Assembly (NCBI GenBank): GCA_050084515.1
Contig: CM114271.1
Location: 13,144,001-13,208,000 of the forward strand
Reading direction: 5' to 3'
Source of the DNA: Blasia pusilla
Lineage: Eukaryota
DNA length: 64,000 nt
This document shows positions 20,500-64,000 of this stretch, one piece after another (position 1 is the first letter of the stretch; the number at the start of each line of letters is the position of its first letter). Under the pieces are notes generated by a model. It was not told where the DNA came from. It did not search any database and saw nothing but the letters and a program-made list of their open reading frames with translations. Both the position numbers and the translations under genes were made by a program.

Positions 20500-23400
20500 G
20501 ATCCCGTGTCCTAGTTAGATAGTGCTTGAGACTAGGAAGGATGTAGAGAGAGGGTTTACACAATCTCCAACATCTACTTTACCTGATTGGGATACTGAAT
20601 GTGTTGAACAATTTTGATGGATCAGCAATATGAGTATTTGTTCTTGTGTAGGAATATCAAGTAGTGTTATTGGTATGTTTGTTGTGAATTTAGTGCAGGG
20701 TCTTTGTATTGTGAATTTAGTACAAGAGACCAAGGAAAATAGAGGGCATATACCCATTCAATAGTGCTTGTTATAAAGCATCCTAGACACTAGGATCTGG
20801 TTCAACAATTCCTTAAGAATAGGATAAGTACACAGAGAGGAAGAAGTGGAGATGGGTATGTAATGAATCTAGGCTATTGAATGTGTAGAACAGTTCTGGT
20901 GGTAACAACAGAGCAAGATCAACATATGCTTTTGTTTGATGTGGACAAAGTTCTTACAGAAGACCAAGACAGTTTTTTATTTGTTGTGTTCCCATCCTGG
21001 TTTTCTTATGGTTAAAGGGTTTATTTTTGGTGCCCCCATCTTAAACTTGAACTTCTGTTAGCTTTATCCCCAGAAGCAAATTTTCAGCTTAGTTTGATTA
21101 TGGTATCCACAAAAATTTTTCATCTTGTTCCCACAGTTCAGGTTTTTGTAGAGGGCCTTGTTCAATCTCTTGAATCTTTGTTCAAAGATGTAGCATGCTT
21201 CTGGTTTTGGTCTTACCAACTTTGCTCTATCAGGATATGCTCATGCTGTGTGTGTTCTGAAATATATGCAAGAGATCAGGAGAAAGAGAGGCTGAACTCA
21301 TAAAGTAGTGTTTGTCATAGTTGGATGTAGCTTGCTTCTGATTTTGTAGGAACCAACTTAGCTATATCAACATATGCTCCTGCTGTGTGTGTTCTGAATT
21401 ATATGCAAGAAATCAAGAGAAAGAGAGGCTGAACTCATAAAGTAGTGTTTGTCATAGTTGGATGTAGCCTGCTTCTGATTTTGCTTAGAAATTAATCTAG
21501 GCTCTAAATATCTTGAACACTTTTGGTGGATTTGTACTCATTTGTTCAGTTAGTGTCACTCAATTGTGCCTATCAGTAAATGTAACTCAACGCCTGTATG
21601 TGTGTTTTGTGTTTTGTGTGTGTGTGCTTCCTCCAGGCTGTTTTGTTGTAAGTGTATACCTATTGCTTTGGTTATGGTATGCAGGATTTTTTTTCCCATT
21701 CAGGTTAAACAATTCAAGTCCTATAGGGAGCTTGGTTGCTTATACAATTACACATTGTTGGTCTAGATAGAGAGGTTGTACTCATTGAGTACTGCATGTT
21801 GTAGCCTTGCGACCATAGACTCCGTATCTCGGGAATACAATGCTTGAGACTTGGATGGTTGTAGAGATAGGTAGAAGTGAAGAAAGTACCATATAAGAGG
21901 AGGGAGACACTATCATATAGTGTGAGTGCTAACCATAAAATCGTAACATGTCGTTGCGGAGCTTCCAAGTATCAACCATAAAGGTCTATACCACCCTATC
22001 TACTTTACCTGATTGGGATTCCCAATAAACAATACTTACCAGTACATAAGCTTAGGGCAATGAATCTAGTTGGGCTACTGTGTATGTTGAACATTTCTGG
22101 TGTTACAAGTTTAGCTTACCAAAGAGAGAAAATGTACTCAATAGTTAATTAGGTAATGCATGTCGTAGCCTTGTGACCTTAGACCTTGCGCCCTGGTTGG
22201 AGAGTGTTGTGACTGGGATGGGAATAGAGAGAGGAAGAATTCATGAATAGAAGCAGGACATTCTCATATAGTGTGAGGGCTGACCATACATCATGTTGGT
22301 GAAGAGCTCTCAAGTCTCAACCAGGAAGCTCTTCACCATCCCATCTACTTGTCTTGGTTGGGATCCCCAACAAATATTGCTTACCAGTGCAACAACTTTG
22401 GTCAATGAATCTAGGCTACTAAATGTGTTGAATATTTTTGGGTGTTACCAGCTTACCAGAGACTGTACTCATTAAGTAGTGCATGTCGTAGCCTTGCGAC
22501 CATAGACCATGCGCCTTGGTTGGACATGAGAGAGATTACTCCTCAAGTAATAAGAACCATATACTTCAATTGATTGGGATTCCCTAGAAACATTACTTAC
22601 TAGTGCAACAACTTTGGGCAATGAATCTAGGCTAGTGAATATGTTGAAAAATTCAGGCATTACTAGCTTAGCAATATCATCATAAGCTCTTGGTCTGTGT
22701 CTTGTTAACTTTGTAATCAGTTATTTTGTTCTACAAGATTGGGATATAGCGTAAAGGCAGAGAGCTCAATGATTTTCATGGCTTTCTCGGTGTTGTTCAG
22801 CTGTATCAATTTGCTGACTGCTTTGATTATGGTTTCCACAAATGCTTTATCATTTTCTTCTCTAATACATGCCATGTAGGGTTGGCTCACATTACTCACC
22901 ATAGTAGAATATTTGGGCAATGAATGTTGGAAACAGATATTCCGTGCCAAACTATTTAGTTATTAGCAACTTAGAATGAGAATCATATGCTCTTACTCTA
23001 TGTGTTGTCTCTTTGTGCAAGAGACCGCGCAGTGACTAGAGCTTTCATCCCTGTCGTTATAGAAGTCCATAGAGGTTAGGAATTGCCCTGGTCCTAATCT
23101 TGAACTTAAGCTGGATTCCCAAGAAATACTTTCTTGGAAAATAGTCGTTGATTCTTGCTTGTTCAGGATCTAGATCTGTCCACCCCATGTACAAGTCCTG
23201 ATTGGAATCCACATAAGCATTGCTTACCACTGTAGCAACTTTGGGCATTCGATAAAGGATAACAAAATGTGTTGAAAAATATTAGTGTTACCCACTCTGC
23301 AATAGCAAAGTATGGGAGTCCTCTGTGTATTCTGAATTTAGTGGTGCCTGTTGTAGTCTCCGGCCATAGACCTTGGATGGATGGTGCTTGAGACATGGAT

Positions 23401-25268
23401 GGACCAAAGACCTCGCACCCTGGTTGGACGGTGCTTGATACTGGGATGGGTGTAGAGAGAGAAACAAGTGAAGAAGATGCCTCTTGAGAGGAGGGATACA
23501 CTCTATATAGTGTGAGTGCTGACCAAACAATGTGTTGGTGCGGAGCTTCCAAGTGTCTACCAAGAAACTCTTCACCACACTATCTACTTTACCTGATTGG
23601 GATCCCCAATAGACATTACTTACCAGTGCTGCAGCTTTGGGCAATGAATCAAGGCTATTGAATGTGTTGAACAATTCCGGTGTCATCAGCCTAGCAATAT
23701 TAGCATGTGCTCTTGCTCTGTGTGTTGTGAATTTTGAGCAGGAGACCATGTAATGACTTGAGGTTTCATCCCCATCGTCACATAAGGTGCAAGAGTTTAG
23801 TTGTGTTCCCATCTTGCTTTTCTCATGGTTCAAGTGGATTGCCCCCATCTTGAACTTGAACTTGAGCTAACAGACTGTACTCATTAAGAAGTGCCTGTTG
23901 TAGCCTTGTGACCATATGTGAGGAGGAAAACACTCTAATATAGTGTGAGTGTTGACCAAACAACGTGTCGGTGAGGAGCTTCCAAGTGTCTACCAAGAAA
24001 CTCTTCACCACACTATCTACTTTACCTGATTGGGATCCCCAATAGACATTACTTACCAGTGCCGCAACTTTGGGCAATGAATCAAGGCTATTGAATGTGT
24101 TGAATAATTCTGGTGTTACCAACTTAGCGATATCATCTTATGCTCTTGCTTTGTGTGATGTGAATTTTGCGTAGGAGACCAAGTAATGACTAGAGGTTTC
24201 ATCTCGATTGTCACACAAGGCACAAGAGTTTAGTTGTGTTCCCATCCAGAGAGAGAGATTGTACTCATTAAGTAGTGCATGTCGTAGCCTTGCGACAGTA
24301 GACCCCGCGCCCTGGTTGGACGATGCTTGAGACTGGGATGGGTGTAGAGAGAGGAAAAAGTGAAGAAGGTACCATAGGAGAGGAGGGAGGCACTCTCATA
24401 TAGTGTGAGTGGTGACCAAACAACGTGGTGGTGCGGAGCTTCCAAGTGCCAACCAAGAAACCCTTCATCACACTATCTACTTTACCTGATTGGGATCCCC
24501 AATAGACATTACGTACCAATGCATCAACTTTGGGCAATGAATCAAGGCTACTGAATGTGTTGAACAATTATAGTGATACCAACTTAGCAATATCAACATA
24601 TGCTCTTGCTCTGTGTGTTGTAAATTTTGAGCAAGAGACCAAGTAATGACTTGAGGTTTCATCCCCATCTTCACTTGTTCCTCTCTCTACACCCATCCCA
24701 GTCTCAAGCACCGTCCAACCAGGGCACGGTGTCTACTATTGTAAGGCTACGACAGACACTACTTAATGAATACACACACACACACTCTCTCTCTTTACTA
24801 TTGAGAGTGTCTCCTTCCTCTCATATGGTACCTTCTTCACTTTCTCCTCTCTCTATACCCATGCTAGTCTCAAGCACCGTCCAACCAGGGTGTGGGGTCT
24901 ATGGTCGTAAGGCTATGACATGCACTACTTAATGAGTACAATCTCTATCCACTTTCCAGCTAGTGCACAGGATGAATGGTTTCAATATATATACTCGTGC
25001 TTTTGCTACATAATGAAAGTATGCTTGATCCAACGACATACTACTCAACAATAGGAGACTACAATTCAAGACAAGGCTTTGAGGATCTAATGTAAGAAAG
25101 TAGGCCAATGACGCGAGTGAAAAATCGAGAAGATTAATCAGAGTCCCAGATTGTACATTTCCCTACATCCTTACACTTGATCCTCCAAGTCGCCTTGTGA
25201 AATGGCGAGAAGATCTCAAGTACCAATACTTGGAGAGAGAGAGACTGTACTCATTAAGTTGTATTTGT
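20500..25268 (-). mobile_element. Cluster of many 5'-truncated 3' ends of one non-LTR retrotransposon family
   Basis: Repeated fragments encode KFKMGAIHLNHEK...CTLCDDGDETSSHYMVSCSKF (ORF2 C-terminal CCHC knuckle)...SLPKVAALVSNVYWGSQSGKVD...WKLR. The repeated 3' terminus ...CAAGGCTACGACATGCACTACTTAATGAGTAC is often followed by (TC)n. Confidence 0.75.
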
Positions 25269-27569: not shown

Positions 27570-30500
27570 AGTGGCTACGCATGACTTGTAATTATGGCAT
27601 AGAGAGCTTGCTAGGGCTGAGGCAGATGGCAAGAGACGTATAAAATGCCCTTGCAATGAGTGCAAGGGGTAGAAAACTATTACATTACATACGGTAGATG
27701 ATCACCTACGAAGGAATGGTAGATTCCCTTTGTACCGGTTGTGGAAAGGGATAGAAGAAAGGGACTTCTCTGATGAGGAGTGGCTAGCTGAAGACCAAAT
27801 GGATAGTACACTTCATCAGAAGTGCATTATGGAGTCAATTGTTAGAATAAAAGATGATTGTACTGAAGATAGGGATGCAACATATAATCGAAATGCAGCC
27901 CCTCCTATGGACATGGATGTGGATGTTAACCAGATGTTGAACGAGGTGTTTGCCCAATATGACCAACTATATGAGGGTAATGTTGGTCATGGAGGAGGGG
28001 AAATAGGGGAAGATCCGCATGAGATGACCATTGACATCCCAACTGCAGAACCTGATATGCTAAATGAAGCATGCAAGCCAATTTTTTCCTGATGCCAAAG
28101 TATCTACGCTTTCTTTTATCATGCATATTTTCAATATTTTTGGGGCACACGGTGTACCCAATATAGTTGTTGATGAACTATTCAAGCTGCTTGGAAAACA
28201 CGTATTGCTAGAAGGTAATCGAGTTCCGAAAAGTCATTATGCAGCGAAGAAGCTAGTGGGAAAGTTGGGGTTGGGATACAATACCACATGCTTGTCCTCA
28301 AGGATGTGTATTGTATCGTGGGGATCTACATGGAGCTGAAGTGTGTCCAAAATATGGAGAGAGTAGATTCAAGAAAGTTGGGAAAAGTATGGTTCCATCC
28401 AAGGTCTTGAGGCATTTTCCTATAATCCCAAGACTACAATGTATGTTTAGGTCCAATGCACTTTCAGAATTGATGTGTTGGTGTCGCGACCCTCATGACC
28501 AAACAAGTGCCAAGCGGAACATCGGAACATTAGCGGGCTCACGCTAAGATGGTTTGTGCGTTGGAGTTGTCTCAAAGAGGAGACAAGAGACGAGACGCGA
28601 GCGAGGAGTCGCGTTTCAGGTGTTATGGTCGCAACTGAGAAACCTGGACCAAACGCAGAATGAGACTTGAAAGAAGTCGAGTCTAGGAAGTGGGTTGCCA
28701 AAGGAAAGATCCGGATGTGGAACGCCACTAGCGTTTGAGAGTTTCCGACTGTATTTATGGCCATAACTTTTAGCGCCAAGATGCGTTTGGAGCAAATAAG
28801 GGTGCGTTGGAAAGCTTACAGAGAGCCGGTCCAAACGCACCAAAGATCGCTGCAAACGCATAAGCAGCGGCCGAGATACGACCCAAAAACGACTGTAAGT
28901 GGAGTCGAGTTGAGGGCCACAATGAAGGGCCCGACCCTCTTTTCTCAAAGGGGAGGGGTTATTGGAGAACCCCAGAAGTACTAGTAAGGGGGAAGGTCTC
29001 CGAGAGTGCTTGGAACCCAAACCCCACTTTGGGCGCCGCGGGGCGGCTCAAGAGCATGGAACGGAACGCGAGTTTGGGGTTGGGTTGGAAAACCTGCACC
29101 AAGTCCAAAGTGAGGCGATTTTAGACATCCTCTTGGATTCCACCCGCGACTCAATTACTTGGGTCTCGGTTTGGAACTCACCGAGGACCGTTGAGCAGTT
29201 GGGATCGCTAGCGCGCAAGTGCCGTTCAGATCCTTGACTAACCAGAAAGTCTGTTCCAAGTCTTGAAGGACTTGCCATGTGTTGGAAGCTAGGAACTAAG
29301 GAAGGTTGAGCTTGATGAGACGCCGAGTTGAGGACTCGGTGGGTTGGAACGCCGGTTGGTCAAACCTGACTAACGAGAGTGCGTGTTTGGGTGCAGATTG
29401 GCGATGAGTTCGTGACCTACTGAACGCACGCTTCCGCAACACTAAAGATTGACGTTCAAGGAGAGTAGGGGCGCGACAGTTGGGCACCTGATAATATGAG
29501 CAAGGATGGTATTGTAAGGCATACTGGAGATTCTAAAGCATGGAAACACGTGGATGAATTGTATCCAGATTTCCAACTTGAAAAGAGGAATTGTAGGTGT
29601 GGTTTGTCTTTAGATGGTGTAAACCCCTTTTTAGACAAGGCTAGCTCATGGAGTACTTAGCCCGTTTTACTAGTGAATTATAACTTGCCACCTTGGCTAC
29701 AAACCAAGAATTTTTTCATTCAATTGGTTTTGATCATGCATGGCAAGGAGAGTGTTAATGCGAGGAACATTGACACTTTTCTTGCTCCAATTTTGGAGGA
29801 GTTCATAGAACTATGGCAAGGTGTAGACTTTTATGATGTCAGAAAACTGAATAGGGTGTGGAAGTTTACATGTAGAGCCTTATCCTTTGGAATATCAATG
29901 ATTATCCAGCATATGGACTAGTTTCTGGGCAAAGTCATGTTGGAAAACATGCATGCACTGATTGTGGACCAAGAGTGAACTCAAACTTCTCCAAGGAGTG
30001 CGGAATGCCTATATTTGGAGGCCACCGTCGATATCTGCACCCTAGCCATGAATGGAGACATACAAAGTATGGTATCCACTTCAATGGTGCAAGTGAATCT
30101 AGAGACCCTCCCAAACCTATCTCAACTGATGAGATTCTACAATGGGCAGAGGATAAGCTAATCTACGAGAGAAATGGTGGCCGAGAAGATCATCCACAAG
30201 ACCCTTTTAAGAAGACAAGTGTGAAAAGGACACAATTTTTTGACCTACCTTATTGGAGAGTATCCAATAGAGATCAATAGGGTTTTGAATGTAAAAGCTT
30301 TTATTTCTGTGCTTGAAGAATCCTTATGATGCTTCTAGTAAGTTTTTCTTAACTAGTATTTCTTTGATTTTTCCTAGCACCTCCTTATCAGACATACAAT
30401 CAATGTGATACATGTGGAGAAGAATATAGCTGAAAACATTGTGAAAACAATTATGGGGATGAAGGATACAATGAAAGTTAGACGAGACATGGAAAAACGC

Positions 30501-32150
30501 GGAATCGGACCTCACTTATGGCTACGACCGCATCCTTCAAAGAGCAGGGGTCTTGTTAAACCTATAGCTAAGTATATCCTATCTCCCTTGGAGTTGACAA
30601 CATTTCTTGGAAGGGTTGAGGCATTGAAAGTGCCTTCTGGCTATTGCGGTGAGTTGAAGAAACATGTTGTTAGGAAAAAGTTGGGCAACATGAAGTCTCA
30701 TGATTACCATGTCTTCATTCATCAGATTTTGCCATATTGCCTACGAGGGCTCATGAGTGAAGAGGTGAGGGTCACTATCATGAGACTAAGCAAGGTCCTT
30801 AGGAACATTTCAATGAAGATGTGGGATCCTTCTCGCTATGAGAAACTGCATGAAGATACTGTGGTCACTCTATGCTTGTTGGAAATGCACTTCCTACCTG
30901 CATTCTTTGATGTAATGAATCATCTTCTCTTACATGTTGTAGAGGAGTTAGATATTTGTGGCCCAGTAGCATGTTGATGGATGTATCCTTTTGAGAGGTA
31001 TATGGGAGTGATGAAAAAGTATGTGAGGTCAAAGGCACGCCGTAAAGGATGTATGGCCGAGAGATATGTCCTCAACGAAGCATTGGGTTTTGGAATATAT
31101 GAGGAGGTTTGAACATGTCCAAAATTGAGTATGGGACTATGGAAAGGAAGCAGAGGTGGCTGGAGAGGAACTAGAAGGTGCAGCAACAACCATCACACTT
31201 TCGTGAGACCTTTTAGTCTTGGAGCACAACTATATACTACGCAACACTCAATGCATGGAGAAATGGTATAGGTAGGGTATCTGTATCTAATCTCTATCCT
31301 TGTGTTTGTTTTCTGATTGGAGTATGAGATATGGCATATCTAGAAGGTTCAATTGTTGATGTTGGTAGTTTCTTACTCTAAACTAATATTCATTGAATTT
31401 TACAGGATTTATGAAGAGAGTGAAATTAACAATATGTCCTTCCAAGATTGGGTTCGTCCAGCCATTTTGGAAGCTGCAGAAGGGAACCTTGAGAAGCTTG
31501 ATGACGAGGCATTTGCTCTCTCCATACCTCCTACTGCTTAAGTGCTCTCCTACAAGAATATGAAAGCTTACAGTAGTCATTATAGGGTGGAAGGGAGTGG
31601 AGGATTAAGTTTCTCAACTTATGATTGTGGTATAGGAGCCGTATTTTTGGATGAGGAGGGCGGGGGGATCCAATTCACATAGTGCTTATTCATATGTGGG
31701 TGTTTTAGTTGATATCTTAGCCTTTGACTACCAGATTATAGGGCAACCTCTCATTCTAATAAGAGGTAGATGGATGAGAGCAGACTAGGACTCTAGGCGC
31801 CCATCCATGAAACGAGATGGGGAGGGTTTTCTTCTTGCTAACCTAAATGATAATGAGCCACTTCACCACCAGCCTTTTGTGTTTCCTTCACAAGTAGAAC
31901 AGGTTTTCTATGGAGATCCGGGTGACGGATGTGCGTGGAGAGTAGTACTTAGGAAAGAAGCAAGGTCTCGCCGTAGCTTTGCAGATTTGACAGATATGAA
32001 TTGGGATAAGGAGGAGAGTAGTGAATACCATAGCCTGGAGGTGACTCCTTTTTTGTAGAGACATTTTCCCCATATCAATACTCTTGACGCCATTGAACTA
32101 AATGACGCTAAAGTTGCCATAGCTCAATCGGATTTTAGCCAAGTACATGT
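27570..32150 (+). pseudogene. CACTA Tnp2/TnpD transposase (Transposase_21-like with DUF4218/DUF4216-like regions), disrupted
   Basis: Motifs IKCPCNECKG...HLRRNG, KVLRHFPIIPRLQCMF, SKDGIVRHTGDSKAWKH, LSLDGVNPF, NYNLPPW, MIHVEKNI, MKSHDYHVF, FFDVMNHLLLH, WMYPFERYM and PFVFPSQVEQVFY. Many stops and frameshifts plus an LTR insertion. Confidence 0.93.
28482..29478. mobile_element. Solo LTR (997 bp) inserted in Tnp2
   Basis: TGTCGCGACCC...GGGCGCGACA with a perfect TSD GTTGG (28477-28481 and 29479-29483). The transposase reads LMCW|APDNMSKDG across it. Confidence 0.93.
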
Positions 32151-40599: not shown

Positions 40600-43500
40600 G
40601 ATTACGAACTCATTCCCTCATAGCCGTCATTGGTGGGTGGCTCATTTACTCCCCACATCCTCTTTTTTGGTGTTTCCAATTTCTTTCATAACTTTCTTCT
40701 CGAATGTCGGTTTTGGGCGTGTTTGGGCCTATTTCGATCGTCTTGACGAGCTCGTTCTTTTGATATCAAGTAGGTTTTCCACTTTTTTTTTTCCTTCTTT
40801 GTAGGCGCCTATTTTTGGGTACGGGTTTGTTTTAGGTCAATTCCTCCCAACAGTCTTCCTTGCTCTTTCAACTCCTTACCTTATTGTTTCGCCCCTACAT
40901 ACGTTTAGGACATTAGAAATTCATATTCTTGAGCCACCTCTTCCGATACCATATCCATCACTTTTCCTTTTTAATTACTTTTTATATTTTTCTTATAGTA
41001 ACTTTCAATCATAAATTCCGTATTGCCTAATCTTCATCTCTCCACTACTTTTGCTTTGTTCGTTATCCTCATGCTTTCTCCAAACCACGTTTCGTATGTC
41101 TTTTCTTGTCTTCGGAGACTTGCCTACCTTTACTTCTATGTCATCAGAGATAGAGTTGGATTCTCCATCTACTCGCTTATCTAGTTTTACACGCCCTCCT
41201 ACAGCCGTAACCTCTCCCCCCTGGTTCACCTCCTCATCGTCGATCTCGCCATTTTCCTCTAGATGCTAATACACCCATTACACTCGCAACATTTCTTCCG
41301 GATTCTCCTCTTCTCCCTTCTCCGCCTTGTCCTATTGAGCCTAATCCTGATCCATTATTACTGAATCCTTCTACTTTGCCATCCCCACATATCTCATCTA
41401 TGCCCTTGCTTCCAACTCCCATCTATTCTACCCGAATCTCCCCTCTTCCTTCTCCTCCTTCCCCAACCTATTTAACCCCTCATCGTTGGCCATCACCATC
41501 TCTTGCACCTCCCACCTCCTCTCCTTGTAACCCTTCTACTTCTCCATTTGTACCAAAGGTTCGTTGCATACCTTGTGGTAAGGACTTTGCTCCTAATGGG
41601 ATCAAAAGACATCAGCGGTATTGTCCATCCATGCATGGGCCTTCAATCCCTAACCCGATACCAACTCCTACTGCACTCCCCACAACAACTGCTTGGACCT
41701 GGTTAAGCCAAATGATCTCCTTCGCTCTTTCCATCCAGGTCTTCCTCGTCCTAGACTCTACACTCGCATTCCTATTGCTCTTCGCCCCATCACCCAACAA
41801 GCTTTGCTATTCCCATTAGAAAGGTAAGCGCGTCACCCCACAAATATAAATGCTTGGTATCTCCTATTACTCTTCCCACAATGGGTTCTAGTCCTCCCTC
41901 CAAGGGGTGCAACGGGTCATCGTGAAACCTCCACACGTATTCAACGCTTTATGTCAGGGGATTGGGAGGATCTTCAGAATGAGCATGTACTTCGAGCTGA
42001 GGCCTTAGCTGCGACTCATCCCACTCAACATGCCAATCATGGGAGGCCTTCAATACAACAATGCCTTTGACGAAGTCTACTATTGGGGCAAGTTGGTGAG
42101 TTTTCACGTGCAACTCGAGCATTGGGTCCTCTTTCTCCGGCGGTTCCAAGTGCGGAAACAGTGCCTCTCTTAGAAGCTCTTCATCCTTCTTCAAGTGGCG
42201 ATGCTCCATCTTTTGTGGAAGACTATACAACAGACCTTGACTTGGAGCTTGACTTGGAGGTTTTCACAAGGGATTTTCTACATACTCCTCGCTTATCAGC
42301 AAGCGGGCTATCAAGGATGGTTTTTTTGCATCTCCGCGATTGCTTTATCCCAGCAGACTCAGCAAGTGGCTTTGTCTCTCTATGTAATGTATGTGCACAT
42401 ATGGCAGCAGGTCGTCTCCCATTCTCTATCTCTAGGCTCTTAGGGGCTTGTCGTTTGTTGGCTATGGATAAGCCTCCTTCAGGTATGCGCCCTTTGGCTA
42501 TTGGAGAGGTTTTATACCGCTCGGTCAGTTGATCCCTATGCTTGCAATTTCGTCCTCACTTTAGTGCCCACTTATTTCCTCATCAATTTGGAGTGGCAAC
42601 TCTTGGAGTTTGTGAGGCTGTGGTGCATGGGATTCGCTCCACTCTTCATGTTCATCCAGATTGGGTAGCAATTCAAGTCGATGTGGCTAACGCATTCAAT
42701 TCAGTTTCTCGTGCGGCCATCTTTGAGGAATTACGTTGTGCAGGAGGACAACTCGCGAGCCTCATTCCATTTGTTCGCTCCTTTTATGCCTATGATACGC
42801 CCATTATCTATTCCCATCATGCTACTCCTGGGGAATATAGTATTCTACAATCGGCTTGTGGCACACGTCAAGGTGATCCCATGGGGGGCCCACTCTTTGC
42901 CATTGCCCATTTTTGTGCCCTTCGAGCATCAGGGCAAGCATTTCCATCTTGTCTTTTCCCTTCTATTGCTGATGACACTCGCATTTTAGGTCCTCCTTCT
43001 GAAGTGGTTCTTGCTTATACCCATTTCGTGGAGCAATCTCTTTCTTAAACCTTAAAGTCCAACCTAGTAAATATGGAGTATGGTCTCCTTCATGCCTTCC
43101 CTCAACATTCACTCCACCTACTCCTGATTTTCCCATTTACATTGAAGGGGTTAGAGTTCTTGGGGTCCTAATTGGCTTCATCGACTATGTCTCAAAGTTC
43201 TTGTTTGAAAGACCTGGAATGGCTTCATTTATTACCTCATCTTGGGGATCCCCAAGTGGCTTATGGGATTCTCTCCCAATGTTTTCTTCGATGTCCTTCC
43301 TACCTTCTTCGCACTTGTCCTCCCACTTCAAGCTTCTTACATCGGCTGGCCTCTTTTGATGCTTCTATCTTGGCAACTTTTGGTCAACTTCTTGGCCCGA
43401 ATACCTTTGAGGGAGAGGATAGTGTCTTTGCTTCACGACAAGCTATCTTGCCTATTTCTTTTGGAGGGGTGGGACTATCCTCCACAGTCACATCTGCTCC

Positions 43501-52268: not shown

Positions 52269-52995
52269 TTATCTCCCCACCCCCCTTAAGGGATCGATTC
52301 GATGAGCACGTGCGGAGGTCGCACGGACCCATTTTTTTGGGTCCAAAAAGTTTATCTAACGGATTACGAGGGAAAAATCCTCCGGTTTCAATTAATTTCT
52401 GACCGATTTCAGTTAAATGGATCGCGAGGAAATTGGATGAATTCTGCGACCACAAATTTGGGAACAAAAAAATCAGCCACACTCTATACCTTGCGCATGG
52501 AGTCCACCCCTGAGTGGTTGAACATGGAGAGCAAAATCCAACTCAACAAGCGAAACCCTGAATCACTAATCTAACGAAGTGGATCCGACCAAGAGTTAGA
52601 CCGAGTTGGAGGAAACCACAACAAGTGTAATGCCGTCCACAGTAATAGCAGACACGATCCCTTCCGTACGTGCATAACCCCGGTCTCTGGCGGCGTACGC
52701 AATAGGCACGTTGAGACCAGGATTCCACATCTCACGCGCTCTTTCGGACATTCTTGCGGAGTGAGACGAATATCCCTCAAGTGATGGACGGCGTTGGACA
52801 CGAAGGAAAACAACGTGTCAACACGGCGTCTGATTATGACTGTGATAGAGCGCGACGTATTCTATGGTCAGAAGTCGGCAGTCCCCTAAGGCATAGTCTT
52901 CAAATTTGCAAGGTGTCCCACTTGTGGTTTGCAACCGTAGTTTTATACAACATCGTTTTTATGGAACGTCGTGGACAAAATAGCGACGTTTCATT

Positions 52996-55900
52996 TGTCG
53001 TGCGTATACACATCGCTCCACAACATACATCGCTGTCACCGAACACACACACAAACACGCAGGATCCCATGCTAACTCATGGCATCCAAACACAGAGGCG
53101 AGAAGTACCAAAATATCTCCAATCGCCCCCTAGGTGGTGATTAGGTCCCTCTAACTCCAGATAGCCATCTATCCCTACCTACCACGACATACATCTCTAG
53201 GACGCTAAGAGCAGAAAGGCCGGGTGCTCATGTGGCCCCATCGTTAGTTGCCTTCCTGTCATCCATGTCAATGAAAAAGTCAGAATCAAAACCTCTCTAT
53301 TATCTCCTCTATGTACATCTGGGACACATCCATCATCCCTGAGGAACCCTAGTGAGAGGTGGTGTCAGACATGCCATATGCCAACCTCTCGAACATCCAT
53401 CACAGACTAGCATCGTGGCCGCACCACGGGCAGAACCACACAACATACAACGCAAGCCTGCAAGAACTACTGCTAAGCTCGGATCTACTCTACCATCAAT
53501 GTTATGAAGATGACATGGCGAAAAATTATGCACATGGTCCTTCCATACCATACCATCGCGTCCCTCTAGCAAGAGAACATCGGATGGCAAAACGTCACGC
53601 ACTCTCAGGATAGTGCACCCTGCAGTCACATCCAACGTCGTCGGTGCCGTCTACTGCAAGTAGACATAATCTCCCTGATGAAACCTTCGGATAGTTGGTC
53701 GATAACCACCACCCCGAATAGTCGCATACCTCAATGTATCCCGATGATGCGCAATCGCCAAGTTCTCGAACGCGATGGGCATCACTCTGCGAAACAACTC
53801 AGCCCTCTGAGAACATGCTCGCATCCATACATCTGGGTCATCAAGGTCCAAAACCTCACCAGCATCTCGACTAATGGCCGCAGGTAAATCTGGCTCTCGG
53901 CCATAAAGTAGCAAGTACGGTGAAAAAGACGTTGTGGATGCCTACGTGCTGAATCTGTATCCCATCGCCAACCAGGGCAACTAGAGGTCCCAATCTCCTA
54001 GATGACCTCTCTGCAAGCCATACTTGCGTAAACCCCTCTTCACCGTCTGCACAACTCTCTCCGCTAATCCATCCGCCTCGGGATGATCTTGCGAAGTCGT
54101 GCGATGGTCGATCAGCGCCTGATCAAACAAGGCCTGGAACTCACCGCGAAACTCGGAACCCTGTTTTGTCAACACCTCAGCCGGTGCGCCATAATGACTC
54201 AGCACTCTATCAAGGAAGCCATAAGCTACTCCCTCACTCGCTTTGTCAGGCAATGCAACCAACTCGATCCACTTTGAGAAGTGCTCGACCATCACCAACA
54301 CATAACGACTGTGACGCTCTATCAGAGGCAAAGGTCCTGCAAAATCCAAACTCCATCTATACCCTTAGCCCATGATCACTTATGGATGCAACTGTGCATT
54401 GGGAGCATTGAACGATGCTCAGACCCGATCACACTTCATGCACCTGGCAACAAACTGATGAACGTCAATCTGCATGCCTCGCCACCAATACTGAATCTGG
54501 AGCAAGTATTACGTCCGCTTCATCCCAAAGTGACCCAACTCCTTGTAGGCATGCTACACTAGTTGTGCTCTCTACGAAGGATGCGGCATTACGCGTACTC
54601 TACCATCCTCCCAAACCCTCAAAATATGTGTCCCCTCCCAACGGAACCGTCTAGCCCGCTGTAGGATCCAATCTTGCTCTCTAGCACCCACGGTGCTCGC
54701 AACGTTGCCAGTACAAAGGTACTCCAAGACTACTCCATCATCATGAATATCTTGGCCATCTGTCGTCTCCTCACTGGCCTCGGGATCCAAGGACTCTCCA
54801 CTAGACCTCGCCATCAAAATCTCCACACTCTGGCTCTCCATAGCCCACATGCCTAAGTAGGCTGACGCGTGCCATCCTGGCACTAACTCCTCATCACTCT
54901 CTCCATGCCATTGAGCTCCAGTTGCATCTCGCTGACTCGGGCATGGGTTACGACTCAACCCATCTGCATCCTGGTTGAGTGTCCCAGGTCTATGTACCAC
55001 CTGAAAATCATACTCCTACAACAACAGAGCCCATCTCGCAAGCTTCTCTGTAAGCTTGTCGGACTCCATCAACCACTACAGTGGTTGATGATCAATGATG
55101 ATGGTAAAGGGATTGCCGAATAAGTAACACCCGAAATGCGCGAGAGTCCACACTGCAGCCAAGCACTCACCCTCATACGAGCTATACTTCGCCTCTGCAA
55201 CGTTGTTTGAACGGCTAGCGTAAGCCACCACGAACTCTCTACTCTCATCATCATGTTGGGTGAGCACCGCTCCAAGCCCCAACATGCTCCAATCTGTGTA
55301 CAACTGGAAAGGACGCCCCCTGATGGGTCTCTTCAAGATGGGCACGGACGTCAACCTATCCTTGAGTAACTAAAATGCTCGCTCCTGCTCATCCCCAGTG
55401 CCACTCGTGATCCACCTTGGTCAGCAAGGTCACCGGCTTCGCAATCGAACTGAATCCCTTGACGTACCACCGATAGAAGTTCGCCAATCCCATGAATGTG
55501 CGAACACGGCTCACATCTGTAGGGCGTGGAATGTGTGAGATAGCCTCTACCTTTTTTTACTGAACACCAAGGCCCCCAGGGTATATTGTATGACCCAAGT
55601 ACTCAATCTGGTCGTAGAAGAACTTGCACTTGCCTGGATGTAGCTTCAGCCCATGTAATTGCAATCGTCGAAACACCTCCTCTAGATGTCGCTCATGCTC
55701 CTCAACTATGGCGCTAAAGACTACGATGCCATCAATATAAAACCTAGCAAAATCCAGACCTACCAAGATCCTATCCATGATCCTCTGAAACTCATCCGGG
55801 GCGTTCTTTAACCCAAATGGTAAGAACCACCACTGGTACAAACAATCCTTCCCGTGAGGATCAATGCCCCAAAATGCCGTCTTTTTCCGTCCTCCAATCT

Positions 55901-56102
55901 AATAGGCAGCTGATGGTATCTGGCTCGCAAATCCAATGAACTAAAAACCTTTGCATGATCAATCGCATCAAAGATTTCCTCAGGGGTGGGCATGGCATAC
56001 CTATTGGACTTCGTTTGCCGATTGATAGGTTGGTAATCCCCACACATCCGCCTATCATTCCAGTTGCCATGCACATCCTTCTTGGCGGGCATGACAGTGG
56101 CA
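52996..56102 (-). mobile_element. Ty3/Gypsy LTR retrotransposon copy 1: RT-RNaseH-integrase-PHD plus 3' LTR, 5'-truncated
   Basis: RT RRMCGDY, LDLRARYHQ, LPFGLKNAP, YIDG(=YIDD). RNaseH LYTDWS, YSSYEGECLA, DHQPL. Integrase DFAGPLP...VEHFSKWIE...GLAERVVQT. PHD finger. 194-bp LTR TGTCGTG...CACGACA at 52996-53189. Confidence 0.92.
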
Positions 56103-56489: not shown

Positions 56490-57030
56490 TAACGCAATTG
56501 AAGCATACACAGCTTGTGATGTGCGTCTTACTTGTTAAGTTGTGTTGAGAATTCTCATCCCCCAGTATCCATTGTTGTAGAAGTGCGGCACAGCTCGGGG
56601 TGGAGAACGCATTTTGTGTAGTTAGATGCCATAGCTGGGGCTGGGTTGTTTGGTACAAAATGCAAGACTACTCATACTTTTGCAATTGGTGTTGTTTGAG
56701 GGCAGGTTGGGGAGTGCGAAGATTGATCCTGGCGGACAGTGTAGTTACTGACGGCCTCTGCCGCGGTTTCGTTGCACTTCAGGCTAACGCAATTGAAGCA
56801 TGCACAGCTTCTGATATGCGTTTTACTTATTAATGAGAGGAATTCCAATCCCCCAGTATCCATTGTCATAGAAGTGCGCCATAGCTTGGGGTGGAGAACT
56901 CGTTTGGTGTAGTTAGTTGCCATAGCTTGGGGTGGGTAGTTTGGTAGAAAATGCAAGACGGAGGTTAATTTTGCAATTGGTGTTGTTCGAGGGCGGTTTG
57001 GGGAGTGCGGAGATTGATCTTGGCGGACAG
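56490..57030. repeat. Diverged ~295-bp tandem duplication upstream of the unknown ORF
   Basis: TAACGCAATTGAAGCA...CCCCAGTATCCATTG...TTGCAATTGGTGTTGTT...GGCGGACAGTG occurs at ~56490-56740 and ~56785-57031. Confidence 0.8.
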
Positions 57031-57056
57031 TGAGGCTAGGCGATGTGTCTACTGAA

Positions 57057-59185: not shown

Positions 59186-59831
59186 TATCGTGCGCATACA
59201 CATTGCTACACAACATACATCACTGTCATCGAACACACACACAAACACACATGATCCCATGCTAACTCATGGCATCCATACACCGAGGCGAGAAGTACCA
59301 AAATATCTCCAATTTGTAAAGTAAGATCCAATCTCTCTCTACACCATCTCACACCATAGCTCTCAAAGGTGTGCACTCTCTCTTATGTCAAACCAAACCC
59401 AATCTCCTAATGAGAGGCTTGGATTACACTCACAAGACAAGCAAGACCATAGCTCCGTCGCCTCATGCCAAGAGGTTCAACAAAGAGAGAATGAGCTCTC
59501 AAGCTCTCTCTCTTGGAGGTATACCCCCTTCCCTCTCCCAGGCCCTCCCAACAGTAACCTATGCTCGAAGGTCACCTCCTTGGCTCTTGACCTGTTGTAG
59601 CGGGTCAAGGGTCACTTTCCAAAGTGGAAAGTCAACTATCCCCAACACGGAAACTTACCCAACATAGTAAGTTTCTCTATATGGCTCCAAATGAGCCGAA
59701 ACGAAGGGGAAACCTACTCTCTCAGGTTTCCCGCGGCCTGAACATGTCATCCTCGACGTCTTGGGCCTGTCCTACACTACTCGTGCAGACGCTTAGCTAG
59801 ATCCCATCGATCTATCATAACACTCGTGACA
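59186..59831 (-). mobile_element. Long-type solo LTR (646 bp)
   Basis: Minus strand TGTCACGAG...GCACGATA, with flanks GTTGG/GTTGT (4/5). Homologous to 25269-25919. Confidence 0.75.
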
Positions 59832-59833
59832 GT

Positions 59834-62800
59834 TGTTGTGCGCATACACATCGCTACACAACATGCATCGTTGTCATCGAACACACATACACACGATCCC
59901 ATGCTAACTCATGGCATCCATACACAAAGGCGAGAAGTACCAAAATATCTCCAATCGCCCCCCTAGCTGGTGGTTAGGTCCCTCTTAATCCATATAGCCA
60001 TGTATCCCTACCTACCACGACATACATCTCTAGGACGCTAAGAGCAAAAAGGTCGGGTGCTCATGTGGCCCCATCGTTAGTTGCCTTCCTATCATCCAGG
60101 TCATAGAAAAAGTCGGAATCGAAACCTACATAGTATCTCTTCTATGTACATATGGGACACATCCATTATCCCCGAGGAACCCTAGTGAGAGGTGGCGTCA
60201 GACATGCCATATGCCAACCTCTCGAACATCCATCACAGACTAGCATTGTGGCCGCACCACGAGCAGAACCACACAACATTCAACGCAGGCCTACAAGAAC
60301 TATTGTTGATCTCGGATCTACTATACCATCAATGTTAGGAAGGTGACATAGCGCAAAATTACGCACATGGTCCTTCCATACCATACCATCGCGTTCCTCC
60401 AGCGTCGTGCGGTGGTCTATCAGCGCCTGATCACACAAGGCCTGGAACTCACCGCGAAGCTCGGTACCCTGGTCTGTCAAGACCTCAGTCGGTGCACCAT
60501 AATGACTTAGCACTCTTTCAAGGAAGGCATAAGCTACTCCCTCACTTGCTTTGTTAGGCAATGCAACCAACTCGATCCACTTCGAGAAGTGCTCGACCAT
60601 CACCAACACATAATGACTGTGACGCTTCGTCAAAGGCAAAGGTCCTGCAAAATCCAAACTCCATCTATATCCTAAGCCCATGATCGATAATGGATGCAAT
60701 TGTGGAGTCGGAGCATTGAACGATGCTCGGACCCGATCACACACCATGCACCTGGAAACAAACTGCTGAACGTCAGTCTGCATGCCTCGCCACCAATACT
60801 GAATCCGGAGCAAGTTGTACGTCCGCTTCACCCCAAAGTGACCCAACTCCTCGTAGGCATGTTGCACTAGTCATGCTCTCTGTGAAGGATGTGGCACTAC
60901 GTGTACTCTACCATCCTCCCAAACCCTCAAAACATGTGTCTCTTCCGAACGGAACCGTCTGGCCCGCTATAGGATCCGATCCTGCTCTCTAGCACCCACG
61001 GTGCTCGCAACGCTGCCAGTACGAAGGTACTCCAAGACTACTCCATCATCATGAATATCTCGGCCACTTGTCATCTCCTCACTGGCCTCGGGATCGAAGG
61101 ACTCTCCACTAGACCTCGCCATCGAAGTCTCCACACTCCGACTCTCCATAGCCAACATGCCTAAATAGGCTGACGTGTGCCATCCTGGCATTGACTCCTC
61201 ATCACTCTCTCCATGCCATTGAGCTCCAGTCGCATCTCGCTGACTCGGGCATGGGTTACGACTCAACCCATCTGCATCCTGGTTGAGCATCCCAACTCTA
61301 TGTACCACCTGAAAATCATACTCCTGCAACAATAGAGCCCATCTCTTAAGCTTCCCTATAAGCTTGTCGGACTCCATCAACCACTTGGTGGTTGATGATC
61401 GATGATGATGGTAAAGGGGTTTCCGAATAAGTAACACCTGAAATGCGCGATAGCCCACACTGCAGCCAATCACTCACCCTCATACAAGCTGTACTTTGCC
61501 TCTGTAGCGTTGTTCGAGCAGCTAGCATAAGCCACCACAAACTCTCTACCCTCATCATCATGTTGGGTGACCACCGATCCAAGCCCCAACATGCTCCAAT
61601 CTGTGTGCAACTAGAAAGGACGCCCCCTGACCGGTCTCTGCAAGATGGGCGCGGACGTCAACCTGTCCTTGAGCAACCTTGAAGACCTTTGCGTGACCAA
61701 TTGCATCAATGATCTCCTCAGGGGTGGGCATGGCATACCTATTGGACTTCGTCGGCCGATTGATAGGTCGATAATCCCCACACATCCGCCTATCCGTCCA
61801 ATTGCCATGCACATCCTTCTTGGCGGGCATGACAATGGCAGATGCATACTCCCCATGCGACATCTTCACTAGTCCTGCTCCGACCAAGTCGTGGCTCCTA
61901 CTCTGAATCAGAGCCCTCTCCATATCACTGTACCTGTAGGGTCGTCCGAAGATCGGTGTATCACTCGACAACTCGATGCGGATCCTCGGTCCCCTCAACG
62001 TACCCAGATCCTCCATGCTAAATGAAAAGCAACTCCTATAACTCCTGAGGAACTGATGTATCCGCCGCGGCTCTCCTCTTGTCAACTTAGGGCCCATATC
62101 TAGCTCCCAAGTCTCCATCATGACTACGGTAGGACTCTCCGGTGTAGGTATTGATGGTTGCTATGGTGCAACCCCGTCTTGAACAACAACACTCAACCGC
62201 TCTCCTACAGTCAAGTGCAAACTCTGATCTCCTCCACATACAGTGCCCAAAACCATGCTCGATGATGTGGCTATAATCTCCTGGCGTACCTGCAAAACAT
62301 CCCAAGAAGTCCAAGGGTGTCTCTCTCGATCTTCCCTAGTGTGTAGATCTCCTCGGGTCTCATTCCTAGCCATTGCCTCCAACGTCTTGGTAGGCATGGG
62401 GCTCACCAACACAACCGATGTGATGTGTCGCGATCTCATATGGCGCTGCTCAGCCACTCCCAAGTTGAGGATCCATGTCAAGCACTTCAGGTCCATTACC
62501 TGACCCAAGACATGGCATCGTGATGCCTCTCACACTGACGGTACTGCCATCACTCCTGTGGGAAATCCCATCGCTCGCTCTCTCTCGTCGGCGTTGGGCT
62601 CCACCAACCATTGAACCTGGTCATCCCAAACCAAGCCAGGACCGGCCTCCTTATATGCATAGGAAGACACTCCACTCTTATAGGAAACTCCGAGAGGGAG
62701 ACTCACAAACGTGGGCAAGGCTGCCCGTGGCCTGCCTACCCTGTTGACCACAATCAACAATGGTCGATCATCATGCCTCACTGCCTGTGATCAACGACTT

Positions 62801-64000
62801 GGATGCATAATGGAATCCAATGCCAAGTGATGGCACTGCTAAATGCTGCTAAGGTCGCCACCTCTCCTGGCCGTCGCTCGATCACTGCATCTGGAAATCG
62901 AATGGGTAATGAGCTTAGGCGCCCATCACCTAACTGCCATCCTGGTCTGTAGGACGTTCACTCCTCCCAATAATCCAGGGAAAATCCCATCGGGTATAAC
63001 ACCGCTCCACCAACCAAGACGTCGTAGGACTCTGCATCAATCACTATCGCCTTGGCTCGCACCACGGACTCATCTGTAGGATGTCGCGGTTGAATCCTCA
63101 CCACGACCTCCTATCGGGTGATATACTATGTGGTACTTCGCTCCACCCAAGGATGTCGTCAGATCCGAATGGACAACCCTCCACATCGGCTCTCGTCAAG
63201 CCCAATCCTCTGAATGACGCTTTCCCCAACATCAGGGGTTGCGCTCCTAAATCCAACAAGACGCGCTGCGGACTAAAAGCTCTACCTCCGGGACTCATCA
63301 ATTGGAAGACCTCTCCTCGGTTATCGAGCAACACAACACCAAGAGAAGCTATGGCATGCTCTATCACAGGTCTAGCGGGCATCTCGCAATCCTAGCGACC
63401 ATGACCGCCATGAATCTAACGTGGACGGCCCGACCATCCGCTCCAAGGGCAGATCCATCACCTCCTCTGCAATCATCTCTGAAGGTGATGCAAGAACTGA
63501 AGTGTAGCGGCCAGCCGAAAAGCCTCGGCGGGCGAACCCCCCAATGTCATAACATCGGAAGCAGAAAATTAAGGAGCGCGGAAAACAATTGTGGCCGCCC
63601 CAACAACGTGCTCGACACATGCCCACTCCTGAACAATACGAGTCGTTGCACTTGCTTCTCCCATTGCCCTCCGTGCCTGCATACCAACAATATCACCAAC
63701 TCTCCAGGAACTCTGATCAGGACCCATCAATGGCGTCCTCATTGCCTCGGACAACGTGAAAGACTGAGGAAGCCTAGTCTGTTTCCTCACTTTCCCTCGC
63801 TATGGATCCAACTCTACGGCTGCTCCACGCCTTACAACTGCGGGTGCCTCCATTTGGGCAACCCCGCACATCCAACCAAGATCCTCCATATCTGCGGCTG
63901 CTCCATATGATGTCGATGCCACAGATCCGCATCGGTAATCGAATGCCATAGCGGCAACCGCTCCTCGTAGCTTATGTATCCGAGCAGACCATCCCGGCCC
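59834..64000 (-). mobile_element. Ty3/Gypsy copy 2: gag tail-protease-C5-MTase remnant-RT-RNaseH-integrase-PHD plus 3' LTR; internally deleted, runs off the window
   Basis: Protease RVLLDLGAQP...YDVLVG. RT N-terminus RPYRYS...YASAIVMPAKKD...RRMCGDYRPIN. Integrase HEELGHFG-like Zn domain and core, then PHD. LTR 59834-60022 matches 52996-53189. Confidence 0.92.
62440..62830 (-). pseudogene. C-terminal half (TRD-like region, motifs IX-X) of a DNMT3/DRM-like cytosine-5 DNA methyltransferase inside the Gypsy pol
   Basis: In-frame EPNADERERAMGFPTGVMAVPSV*EASRCHVLGQVMDLKCLTWIL matches the DNMT3/DRM pattern E-x-E-R-x-x-G-F-P...S...R...LG. Catalytic motifs I-VIII are not present in this copy. Confidence 0.72.

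Follow-up and report, generated by a model that had tools for sequence, protein, structure and literature searches.

The window analysed here, a stretch of 64,000 nucleotides from Blasia pusilla (NCBI GenBank assembly GCA_050084515.1, contig CM114271.1, forward-strand positions 13,144,001 to 13,208,000; coordinates below count from its first letter), contains on its minus strand, at 59983-64000, a decayed and internally deleted copy of a Ty3/gypsy-type long terminal repeat (LTR) retrotransposon. Very probably, this dead copy retains the tail of a DNMT3 domain and belongs to a family whose Pol polyprotein runs in the order gag (CCHC), protease (PR), DNMT, reverse transcriptase (RT), RNase H (RH), integrase (INT) and PHD finger, with a whole DNMT3-like domain. 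For the family, not for the remnant alone, profile comparisons and a predicted structure identify this domain as a complete, non-rearranged DNMT3-like cytosine-5 (C5) methyltransferase. The family is abundant and transcribed in B. pusilla. Intact relatives are present in genomes of liverworts and peat mosses. Elements of the Gypsy-DNMT3 kind have been reported before from a charophyte; that they also occur, in abundance and with expression, in bryophyte-type land plants seems to be new to the literature.

Read in a single frame, the minus strand at 62161-62790 encodes ...RPRAALPTFVS...GPGLVWD...EPNADERERAMGFPTGVMAVPSV, followed by a TGA stop and EASRCHVLGQVMDLKCLTWIL..., exactly as an earlier note on this DNA, made from the letters alone, had quoted these residues and the stop (TGA 62530-62532). 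With relatives as tblastn queries, this methyltransferase tail (62826-62251, minus strand) was placed between a protease-like region (63385-62829) and an RT-like region starting at 62130, in agreement with the protease and RT positions given in that note. The segment occurs a single time within the 64-kb window and is out of frame with the protease region. It corresponds to states 207-330 of a 331-state family hidden Markov model (HMM), i.e., to the target-recognition part of the domain together with motifs IX and X. Both motifs are present, as ERERAMGFP and LGQVMD align with the family motifs and, via the family profile, with DNMT3A. The segment and the lesions in and beside it are as follows.

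62425..62826, minus strand: DNMT3-like C5-methyltransferase remnant (alignment to relatives and family HMM)
62560..62586, minus strand: motif IX, ERERAMGFP, the commonest form among 287 covered sequences; aligned to DNMT3A
62491..62508, minus strand: motif X equivalent, LGQVMD (family majority LGQAMD); aligned to DNMT3A LLGRS
62251..62424, minus strand: conserved linker that follows the methyltransferase domain as far as ...HPWTSWDVL... (alignment to relatives)
62823..62826, minus strand: deletion junction at which the frame changes and about 300 codons (motifs I-VIII) are gone (alignment to relatives; RNA reads)
62791..62793, minus strand: in-frame TGA, R or H in relatives (alignment to relatives)
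62530..62532, minus strand: in-frame TGA, S in relatives (alignment to relatives)
62668..62694, minus strand: 27-nt insertion (LGVSYKSGV), missing from 10 of 10 aligned relatives

The nature of the segment was established from its relatives. A word-indexed search (801 candidates) yielded 16 homologous proteins with E-values from 5e-45 to 3e-11 and 39-62% identity, whose named sources are Sphagnum jensenii, S. fallax, S. troendelagicum, Calypogeia fissa and Marchantia polymorpha. Judged by these scores, the match between remnant and relatives is far beyond chance. A precomputed PF00145 match exists for 12 of the 16 homologues, and a fresh Pfam scan found it in 7 of 10. An exhaustive HMMER search returned 417 representative clusters with a cutoff of E<=1e-3 and still 91 with E<=1e-10, while a profile search collected 542 proteins, the best 120 of which include at least 18 Marchantia gene models, five from Calypogeia and several from Sphagnum. 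PF00145 was matched at E<=0.001 in 36 of 37 members with a full domain. In full-length relatives, the peptides LFGGISTG, AGWPCQG, YILENVP and SRAHRPRLWWTN, which we take to be motifs I, IV, VI and VIII, precede the counterpart of the window's tail in the same open reading frame (ORF). Motif I (FxGxG) serves the binding of S-adenosylmethionine (AdoMet) and motif IV (PC) holds the catalytic cysteine; the other two are characterized by ENV (VI) and RxR (VIII). All four are absent from the window copy and lie within the approximately 300 deleted codons.

Profile and fold comparisons both point to DNMT3 as the class of this methyltransferase. Against all PDB chains, a profile of 37 family sequences matched DNMT3A (2.6e-24), DNMT3C (9e-23) and DNMT3B (4e-22) best, followed by tobacco DRM (1e-11), DRM2 (6.5e-9), HhaI (1.5e-7) and DNMT2 (1.4e-5), and no DNMT1 chain was matched at E<=0.01; a profile of 11 sequences gave DNMT3A at 2.7e-20 and the same ranking of classes. 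The alignment with DNMT3A consists of three collinear stretches, the third of which is the window's motif IX-X part (ERE..GF....S...R..LLG), and the DNMT3A string quoted in the earlier note coincides with the residues that HMMER pairs with this part of the family profile. An AlphaFold2 model of the relative P0009, computed from the 37-row alignment, reached a predicted local distance difference test score (pLDDT) of 91.7 and a predicted template modelling score (pTM) of 0.90 (the model from the 11-sequence alignment, with pLDDT 48, was too poor for use). When this model was searched with Foldseek, the best 50 rows were all DNMT3A, 3B or 3C (E 1e-19 to 1e-16), with TM-scores, normalised by target length, of 0.80-0.85 for catalytic-domain chains. 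Superposition with VIA-align placed 272 of 283 residues on DNMT3A at a root mean square deviation of 2.5 A (Z 28.6), model residues 43-365 corresponding to DNMT3A 630-907; a bacterial CpG-specific enzyme (Z 24.9) and HhaI (23.5) came next. The proposal that the segment represents motifs IX-X at the end of a DNMT3-like domain was thus borne out by way of the full-length relatives.

The catalytic domain of animal DNMT3A, 3B and 3C is the best match in profile and fold, and the order of the motifs from I to X is alike. In contrast to animal DNMT3, identity is only about 22-26%, PWWP and ADD domains are missing, the domain sits within a retrotransposon polyprotein, and motif X reads GQAMD instead of GRSW. 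The plant enzymes DRM and DRM2 are de novo C5-methyltransferases related to DNMT3; their profile match is far weaker (1e-11 and 6.5e-9, respectively) and covers the motif I-VI part alone. According to the passages on these enzymes in PMC5890265, the motifs of DRM are rearranged.

The conservation of the catalytic motifs was assessed in 335 proteins matching the family HMM. Among the sequences covering the respective site, motif IV reads PCQ in 105 and ECQ in 59 of 175, motif VI reads ENV in 127, ENT in 39 and ENA in 12 of 200, and HRxR is kept in all frequent forms of motif VIII. Eight uninterrupted polyproteins of 2072-2374 amino acids showed a mean pairwise identity of 0.51-0.53 over the DNMT domain; gag (0.40), PR (0.48) and the linker (0.33) were lower, and RT, RH and INT (0.63-0.68) higher. 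At the level of aligned family sequences, the domain is whole, with the catalytic cysteine, the ENV glutamate and RxR kept, and its conservation exceeds that of gag and protease.

The position of the domain within the polyprotein is best seen in P0085, a single ORF of 2188 amino acids with the order CCHC, aspartyl protease, DNA_methylase, RVT_1, RNase H and integrase. The part of this order that P0110 covers is identical, P0191 has PHD in addition (precomputed Pfam), and P0194 from Closterium also carries DNMT before RT. Together with the PHD finger of both copies in the window, these proteins confirm the order PR-DNMT-RT-RH-INT-PHD that the earlier note had put forward. In a second, mostly algal architecture, the DNMT domain lies between RNase H and integrase and is followed by PHD and sometimes Tudor (P0070, P0091, P0077, P0083, P0082, P0163 and P0214 from Monoraphidium). 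This second lineage, which includes Monoraphidium and a Cymbomonas protein, has mostly ECQ instead of PCQ in motif IV, and ENT or ENA in motif VI. In an unrooted FastTree phylogeny of 119 full domains and the window, in which long branches were flagged, the two architectures fall almost wholly on two sides, with support values of 85 and 87 that are not decisive. Of the 57 rows on one side, 51 are of the second type, the remaining 6 being unplaced. The other side has 59 rows, made up of the window, 28 rows with the first architecture, 29 unplaced ones and a single gene model with the second architecture. Four more rows (three of the second type, one unplaced) branch from the drawn root and belong to neither side. 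The window groups, at support 99, in a 19-row clade together with sequences from Marchantia, Calypogeia and metagenomes; the sequence closest to it is P0003 from Calypogeia (68% over 118 columns).

Some of the collected sequences deserve separate mention. The Sphagnum gene models P0001, P0016 and P0007 also lack parts of the catalytic half, with differing break points; since their gene structures are predictions, the missing parts may correspond to introns that the gene caller placed round stop-rich stretches. P0226, a Gypsy polyprotein of 1974 amino acids with a DNMT domain, is labelled as belonging to a metagenome-assembled genome of a 'Minisyncoccia bacterium' and groups with Monoraphidium (support 100); it probably represents a eukaryotic contig that was binned wrongly. 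From a collection of viral contigs came 80 loci with 24-53% identity over parts of the domain, which we took as unrelated methyltransferases and not as members of the family.

The window copy itself keeps the Pol order PR-RT-RH-INT, as in Ty3/gypsy elements and as in its relatives, but has been damaged at many places. Its other regions and a second copy in the window (copy 2) are the following.

63500..63988, minus strand: gag-like region, the element running past the window end (similarity to relatives; no Pfam match)
62829..63385, minus strand: protease-like region (no Pfam match of its own; the relative P0008 has Asp_protease_2)
61675..62130, minus strand: RT, N-terminal part (tblastn with relatives)
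61389..61742, minus strand: RNase H (RT_RNaseH_2, 8.3e-26)
60343..61386, minus strand: integrase, H2C2 zinc domain and core, with stops (Pfam 9.5e-17 and 1.2e-12)
60148..60276, minus strand: PHD finger downstream of integrase (PF00628, 1e-10)
52992..56102, minus strand: copy 2, RT-RH-INT-PHD, 5'-truncated, with many stops (90-91% DNA identity to copy 1)

At the junction beside the methyltransferase tail, the frame ending in ...AAFSSAITW stops at 62823, and another frame, LALDSIMHPSR(TGA)SQAVRHDDRP, begins at 62826. The two sides correspond to residues 753 and 1054 of P0237 from Marchantia and to residues 455 and 753 of P0005. The abrupt junction that had been suspected near 62830, with the catalytic half lost, is therefore real and lies at 62823/62826, and further internal deletions, likewise suspected, became apparent from the comparison with copy 2, which retains the stretches concerned: 573 bp of the RT core at 61677/61682, and 525 bp after the integrase. 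The protease-like region has a frame change near 63125-63146, in-frame stops, and DLG where relatives have DSG. The frame shift at the deletion and the two TGA stops in the remnant mean that the window copy is dead, and with the AdoMet-binding and catalytic motifs I-VIII lost and further damage elsewhere, the remnant does nothing in this copy. Copy 2 begins inside RT and is thus uninformative on the methyltransferase; the PHD finger follows the integrase in both copies (1e-10 and 1.2e-10).

For B. pusilla itself, two sets of DNA contigs and the raw RNA of two runs (X20 and X21) were aligned to 59800-64000, with reads at least 85% alike. All 30 of 30 bins were covered in all four runs, including 62338-62901, with a lower depth over the tail than over the integrase. 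The covering contigs and reads are mostly 85-95% alike, so many diverged copies in B. pusilla hold the segment. Only 5 of 3446 RNA reads in X20 and 3 of 3543 in X21 were at least 99% alike, which indicates that the RNA comes from other copies, not from the window copy. Nearly all RNA is of the type 'first mate on +' (e.g., 84.9 vs 6.29 in the first bin); for the usual stranded library type, this bias would represent minus-strand RNA, i.e., the sense of the element. At 62822, 59 X20 reads depart from the window sequence, and on the element strand their loose ends encode a peptide near WP(S/D)(E/D)LLEGN, which follows ...SW in the relatives. Because the loose ends resemble the relatives, the transcribed copies continue where the window copy is deleted; comparable loose ends occur at other deletions, at 60403/60404 and 61677.

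Two side observations concern these reads. An RNA joint from 61496 to 62000 skips 503 bases, with four other letters between, and was seen in 9 and 18 reads of the two RNA runs and in no DNA contig; it could stem from a transcribed deletion derivative or from processed RNA. Differences between the copy and the reads are mostly C>T and G>A (in run X1, 136 and 124, vs 89 A>G and 95 T>C), an excess that would fit the decay of methylated cytosines, although the counts do not give the direction of change.

Several points weigh against the reading of the segment as the remnant of a DNMT3-like domain that is whole in the family. By itself, the remnant is not recognised: Pfam, applied to the whole and to its two halves, gave 0 families at E<=10, thus no PF00145 match, and phmmer against the PDB returned an irrelevant cytochrome at E 1.4 and nothing else. 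A tail-only profile of 58 sequences did not reach significance against the PDB (E 0.31-2.1), with 18 of its 18 matches being DNMT3A, 3B or 3C at the expected place. The profile search on the remnant that the earlier note had proposed as a check fails accordingly, and the homology to C5-methyltransferases was established solely via the full-length relatives. The assignment to DNMT3 derives from profile searches and solved structures rather than from a phylogeny that includes host DNMT3, DRM, DNMT4 and DNMT5; a 2026 preprint puts the DNMT of another algal LTR element beside DNMT4, which calls for some caution about the class. The catalytic motifs anticipated upstream in fuller copies exist in the ORFs of relatives, but no B. 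pusilla copy with an intact methyltransferase was seen, the reads having been aligned to the window sequence, which itself lacks motifs I-VIII. Most close relatives from metagenomes are decayed: of the 40 loci in which a single alignment spans the domain, just two are free of stops. We also calculated the ratio of nonsynonymous to synonymous divergence (dN/dS) for 51 of 80 metagenome loci, the 29 others being dropped as they lacked one alignment across residues 95-405. At a synonymous divergence of 0.1-0.3, dN/dS was 0.49 in the N half and 0.42 in the tail (430 pairs), and 0.47 in the upstream linker (423 pairs); in the 21 youngest pairs, the N-half value was about 1. As dN/dS fails to separate the domain from the linker, we draw no conclusion from it about selection on the enzyme. 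These ratios and the pattern of decay fit an ORF that is constrained in active lineages and decays neutrally after insertion, without singling out the enzyme.

That the remnant alone lacks a significant profile match could be taken to mean that its likeness to motifs IX-X is due to chance and that the segment is just a conserved linker between PR and RT of gypsy elements. We consider this extremely improbable, since the segment continues a PF00145-positive region within single ORFs of relatives and, in the P0009 model, ends the fold that aligns to DNMT3A through residue 907. The family profile, the model and the superposition refute a chance likeness, unless the relatives are chimeric assemblies. 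Hardly more credible is the single-copy capture of a host DNMT3 fragment, or a host DNMT gene disrupted by transposon insertions, even though the window has one copy of the segment and copy 2 is truncated upstream of RT. The domain order is common to hundreds of clusters, and contigs and RNA reads of B. pusilla cover the segment, which together with the relatives refutes such an origin; the view implied in the earlier note, that the segment occurs in other members of the family and is not a one-off capture, is upheld by the same evidence. It is also improbable, if to a lesser degree, that the family domain is a pseudo-enzyme, the fold of which serves DNA or chromatin binding or oligomerisation in a non-catalytic manner, like DNMT3L. 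The departures from the canonical forms, with ECQ in 59 of 175 and ENT or ENA in 51 of 200 covered sequences, would speak for it. However, the clade of the window has the canonical PCQ in the rows covering motif IV, ENV and RxR are the majority forms family-wide, and the nucleophilic cysteine is kept in nearly all covered sequences. Moreover, the Discussion of PMC5890265 states that a related DNMT3 domain, from a dinoflagellate DIRS element, methylated CG sites.

The reading that we prefer, a dead copy from a gypsy family with a whole DNMT3-like domain, has a close parallel in the literature. In its main text, the study of de Mendoza et al. (2018, PMC5890265) describes Gypsy elements with DNMT3 solely for the charophyte Klebsormidium nitens, and Marchantia, Sphagnum, mosses and liverworts are absent from this main text. 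In the passages concerned, later texts speak of 'streptophytes (Gypsy-DNMT3)' and of DNMT3 in retrotransposons 'as previously reported in streptophytes', with no bryophyte named there. Our literature search found no description of such elements in bryophytes or other land plants, although supplements, figures and non-open journals were outside the search and may hold one. As portrayed in the sections of PMC5890265 devoted to it, KnitGypsy-Dnmt3 resembles the present family in being a Gypsy element with a non-rearranged DNMT3-type domain in the Pol ORF, with key catalytic residues kept and signs of constraint on the domain. Different from KnitGypsy-Dnmt3, to which the family is likened from its published description, the named relatives here come from the land plants Marchantia, Calypogeia and Sphagnum and from the charophyte Closterium, and the window copy is a dead fragment. 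There was no Klebsormidium sequence among the matches listed.

Other retrotransposons with a C5-methyltransferase are more distant. SymbioDIRS-Dnmt3 and SymbioLINE-Dnmt of dinoflagellates share this feature, but, as presented in the relevant part of PMC5890265, have DIRS and LINE backbones and another host lineage, and the authors consider the acquisitions independent. The EpiLTRs of Cymbomonas and Euglena (bioRxiv 10.64898/2026.05.21.726589) are likewise LTR elements, from green algal or euglenid hosts, that combine a cytosine methyltransferase with a chromatin reader; in the preprint's account of them, DNMT lies at the 3' end of pol, is accompanied by an adenine methyltransferase and a chromodomain, and is sister to DNMT4, whereas in the present family DNMT lies between PR and RT and the reader is PHD. 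The window's tail has one distant Cymbomonas relative, P0138 (E 9.7e-9), in which Pfam recognised neither an adenine methyltransferase nor a chromodomain. With chromoviruses, the family has in common that a histone-reader module is fused after the integrase, but this reader is PHD (PHD and Tudor in the algal relatives) instead of a chromodomain.

In intact elements, the enzyme would be translated as part of Pol, directly upstream of RT. It may then methylate new element cDNA or the DNA at the integration site, with the PHD finger at the integrase reading host chromatin or histone tails, a scheme that we put forward tentatively, as somewhat short of an even chance. For elements of this kind, the idea that they methylate their cDNA or their insertion sites, also voiced in the earlier note, had been raised in the Discussion of PMC5890265. 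An action of the enzyme in trans on host DNA seems unlikely.

A wider evolutionary scenario is conceivable but doubtful: Gypsy elements with a working DNMT3-type enzyme might be an old streptophyte lineage that crossed onto land and is still transcribed in bryophyte-type plants, including Marchantia polymorpha, while in a green-algal sister lineage the domain would have been relocated to a site between RNase H and integrase, with PHD and Tudor readers being gained as well. If this were true, de novo methylation encoded by transposons would be an active component of early-land-plant epigenomes and accessible to genetic tests. Cytosine methylation is the main means by which plants silence transposons; a transposon with its own de novo methyltransferase would therefore reverse the usual roles. 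While the published case is one charophyte alga, the family is now found to be abundant in liverwort and peat-moss records and transcribed in B. pusilla. Marchantia is transformable and methylome resources exist for it, so that the role of the enzyme for the element could be tested there. Furthermore, such ORFs bear the annotation 'DNA (cytosine-5-)-methyltransferase' or hypothetical protein, and comparative surveys could mistake them for DNMT genes of the host.

Regarding the rest of the window, the 5' end of copy 1 lies beyond base 64000, and the '194-bp LTR' of the earlier note found no confirmation. The sole repeat pair of about this length, two 193-nt direct repeats (56549-56741 and 56840-57032, 86% alike, 291 nt apart), is probably what was meant, but is situated between the two copies and flanks no element. 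Searching the whole window against Rfam gave 0 matches, and none of its seven ORFs of at least 170 amino acids was recognised as a host gene; the window is rich in transposons. A 126-nt repeat occurs at 52998-53123, 59188-59313 and 59830-59955. Other transposon ORFs match DUF4218, a domain of plant CACTA-type transposons (1.7e-12; 30378-30974, plus strand), RVT_1 (1.2e-5; 42533-43045, plus strand) and zf-RVT (1.1e-3; 23291-23866, minus strand).

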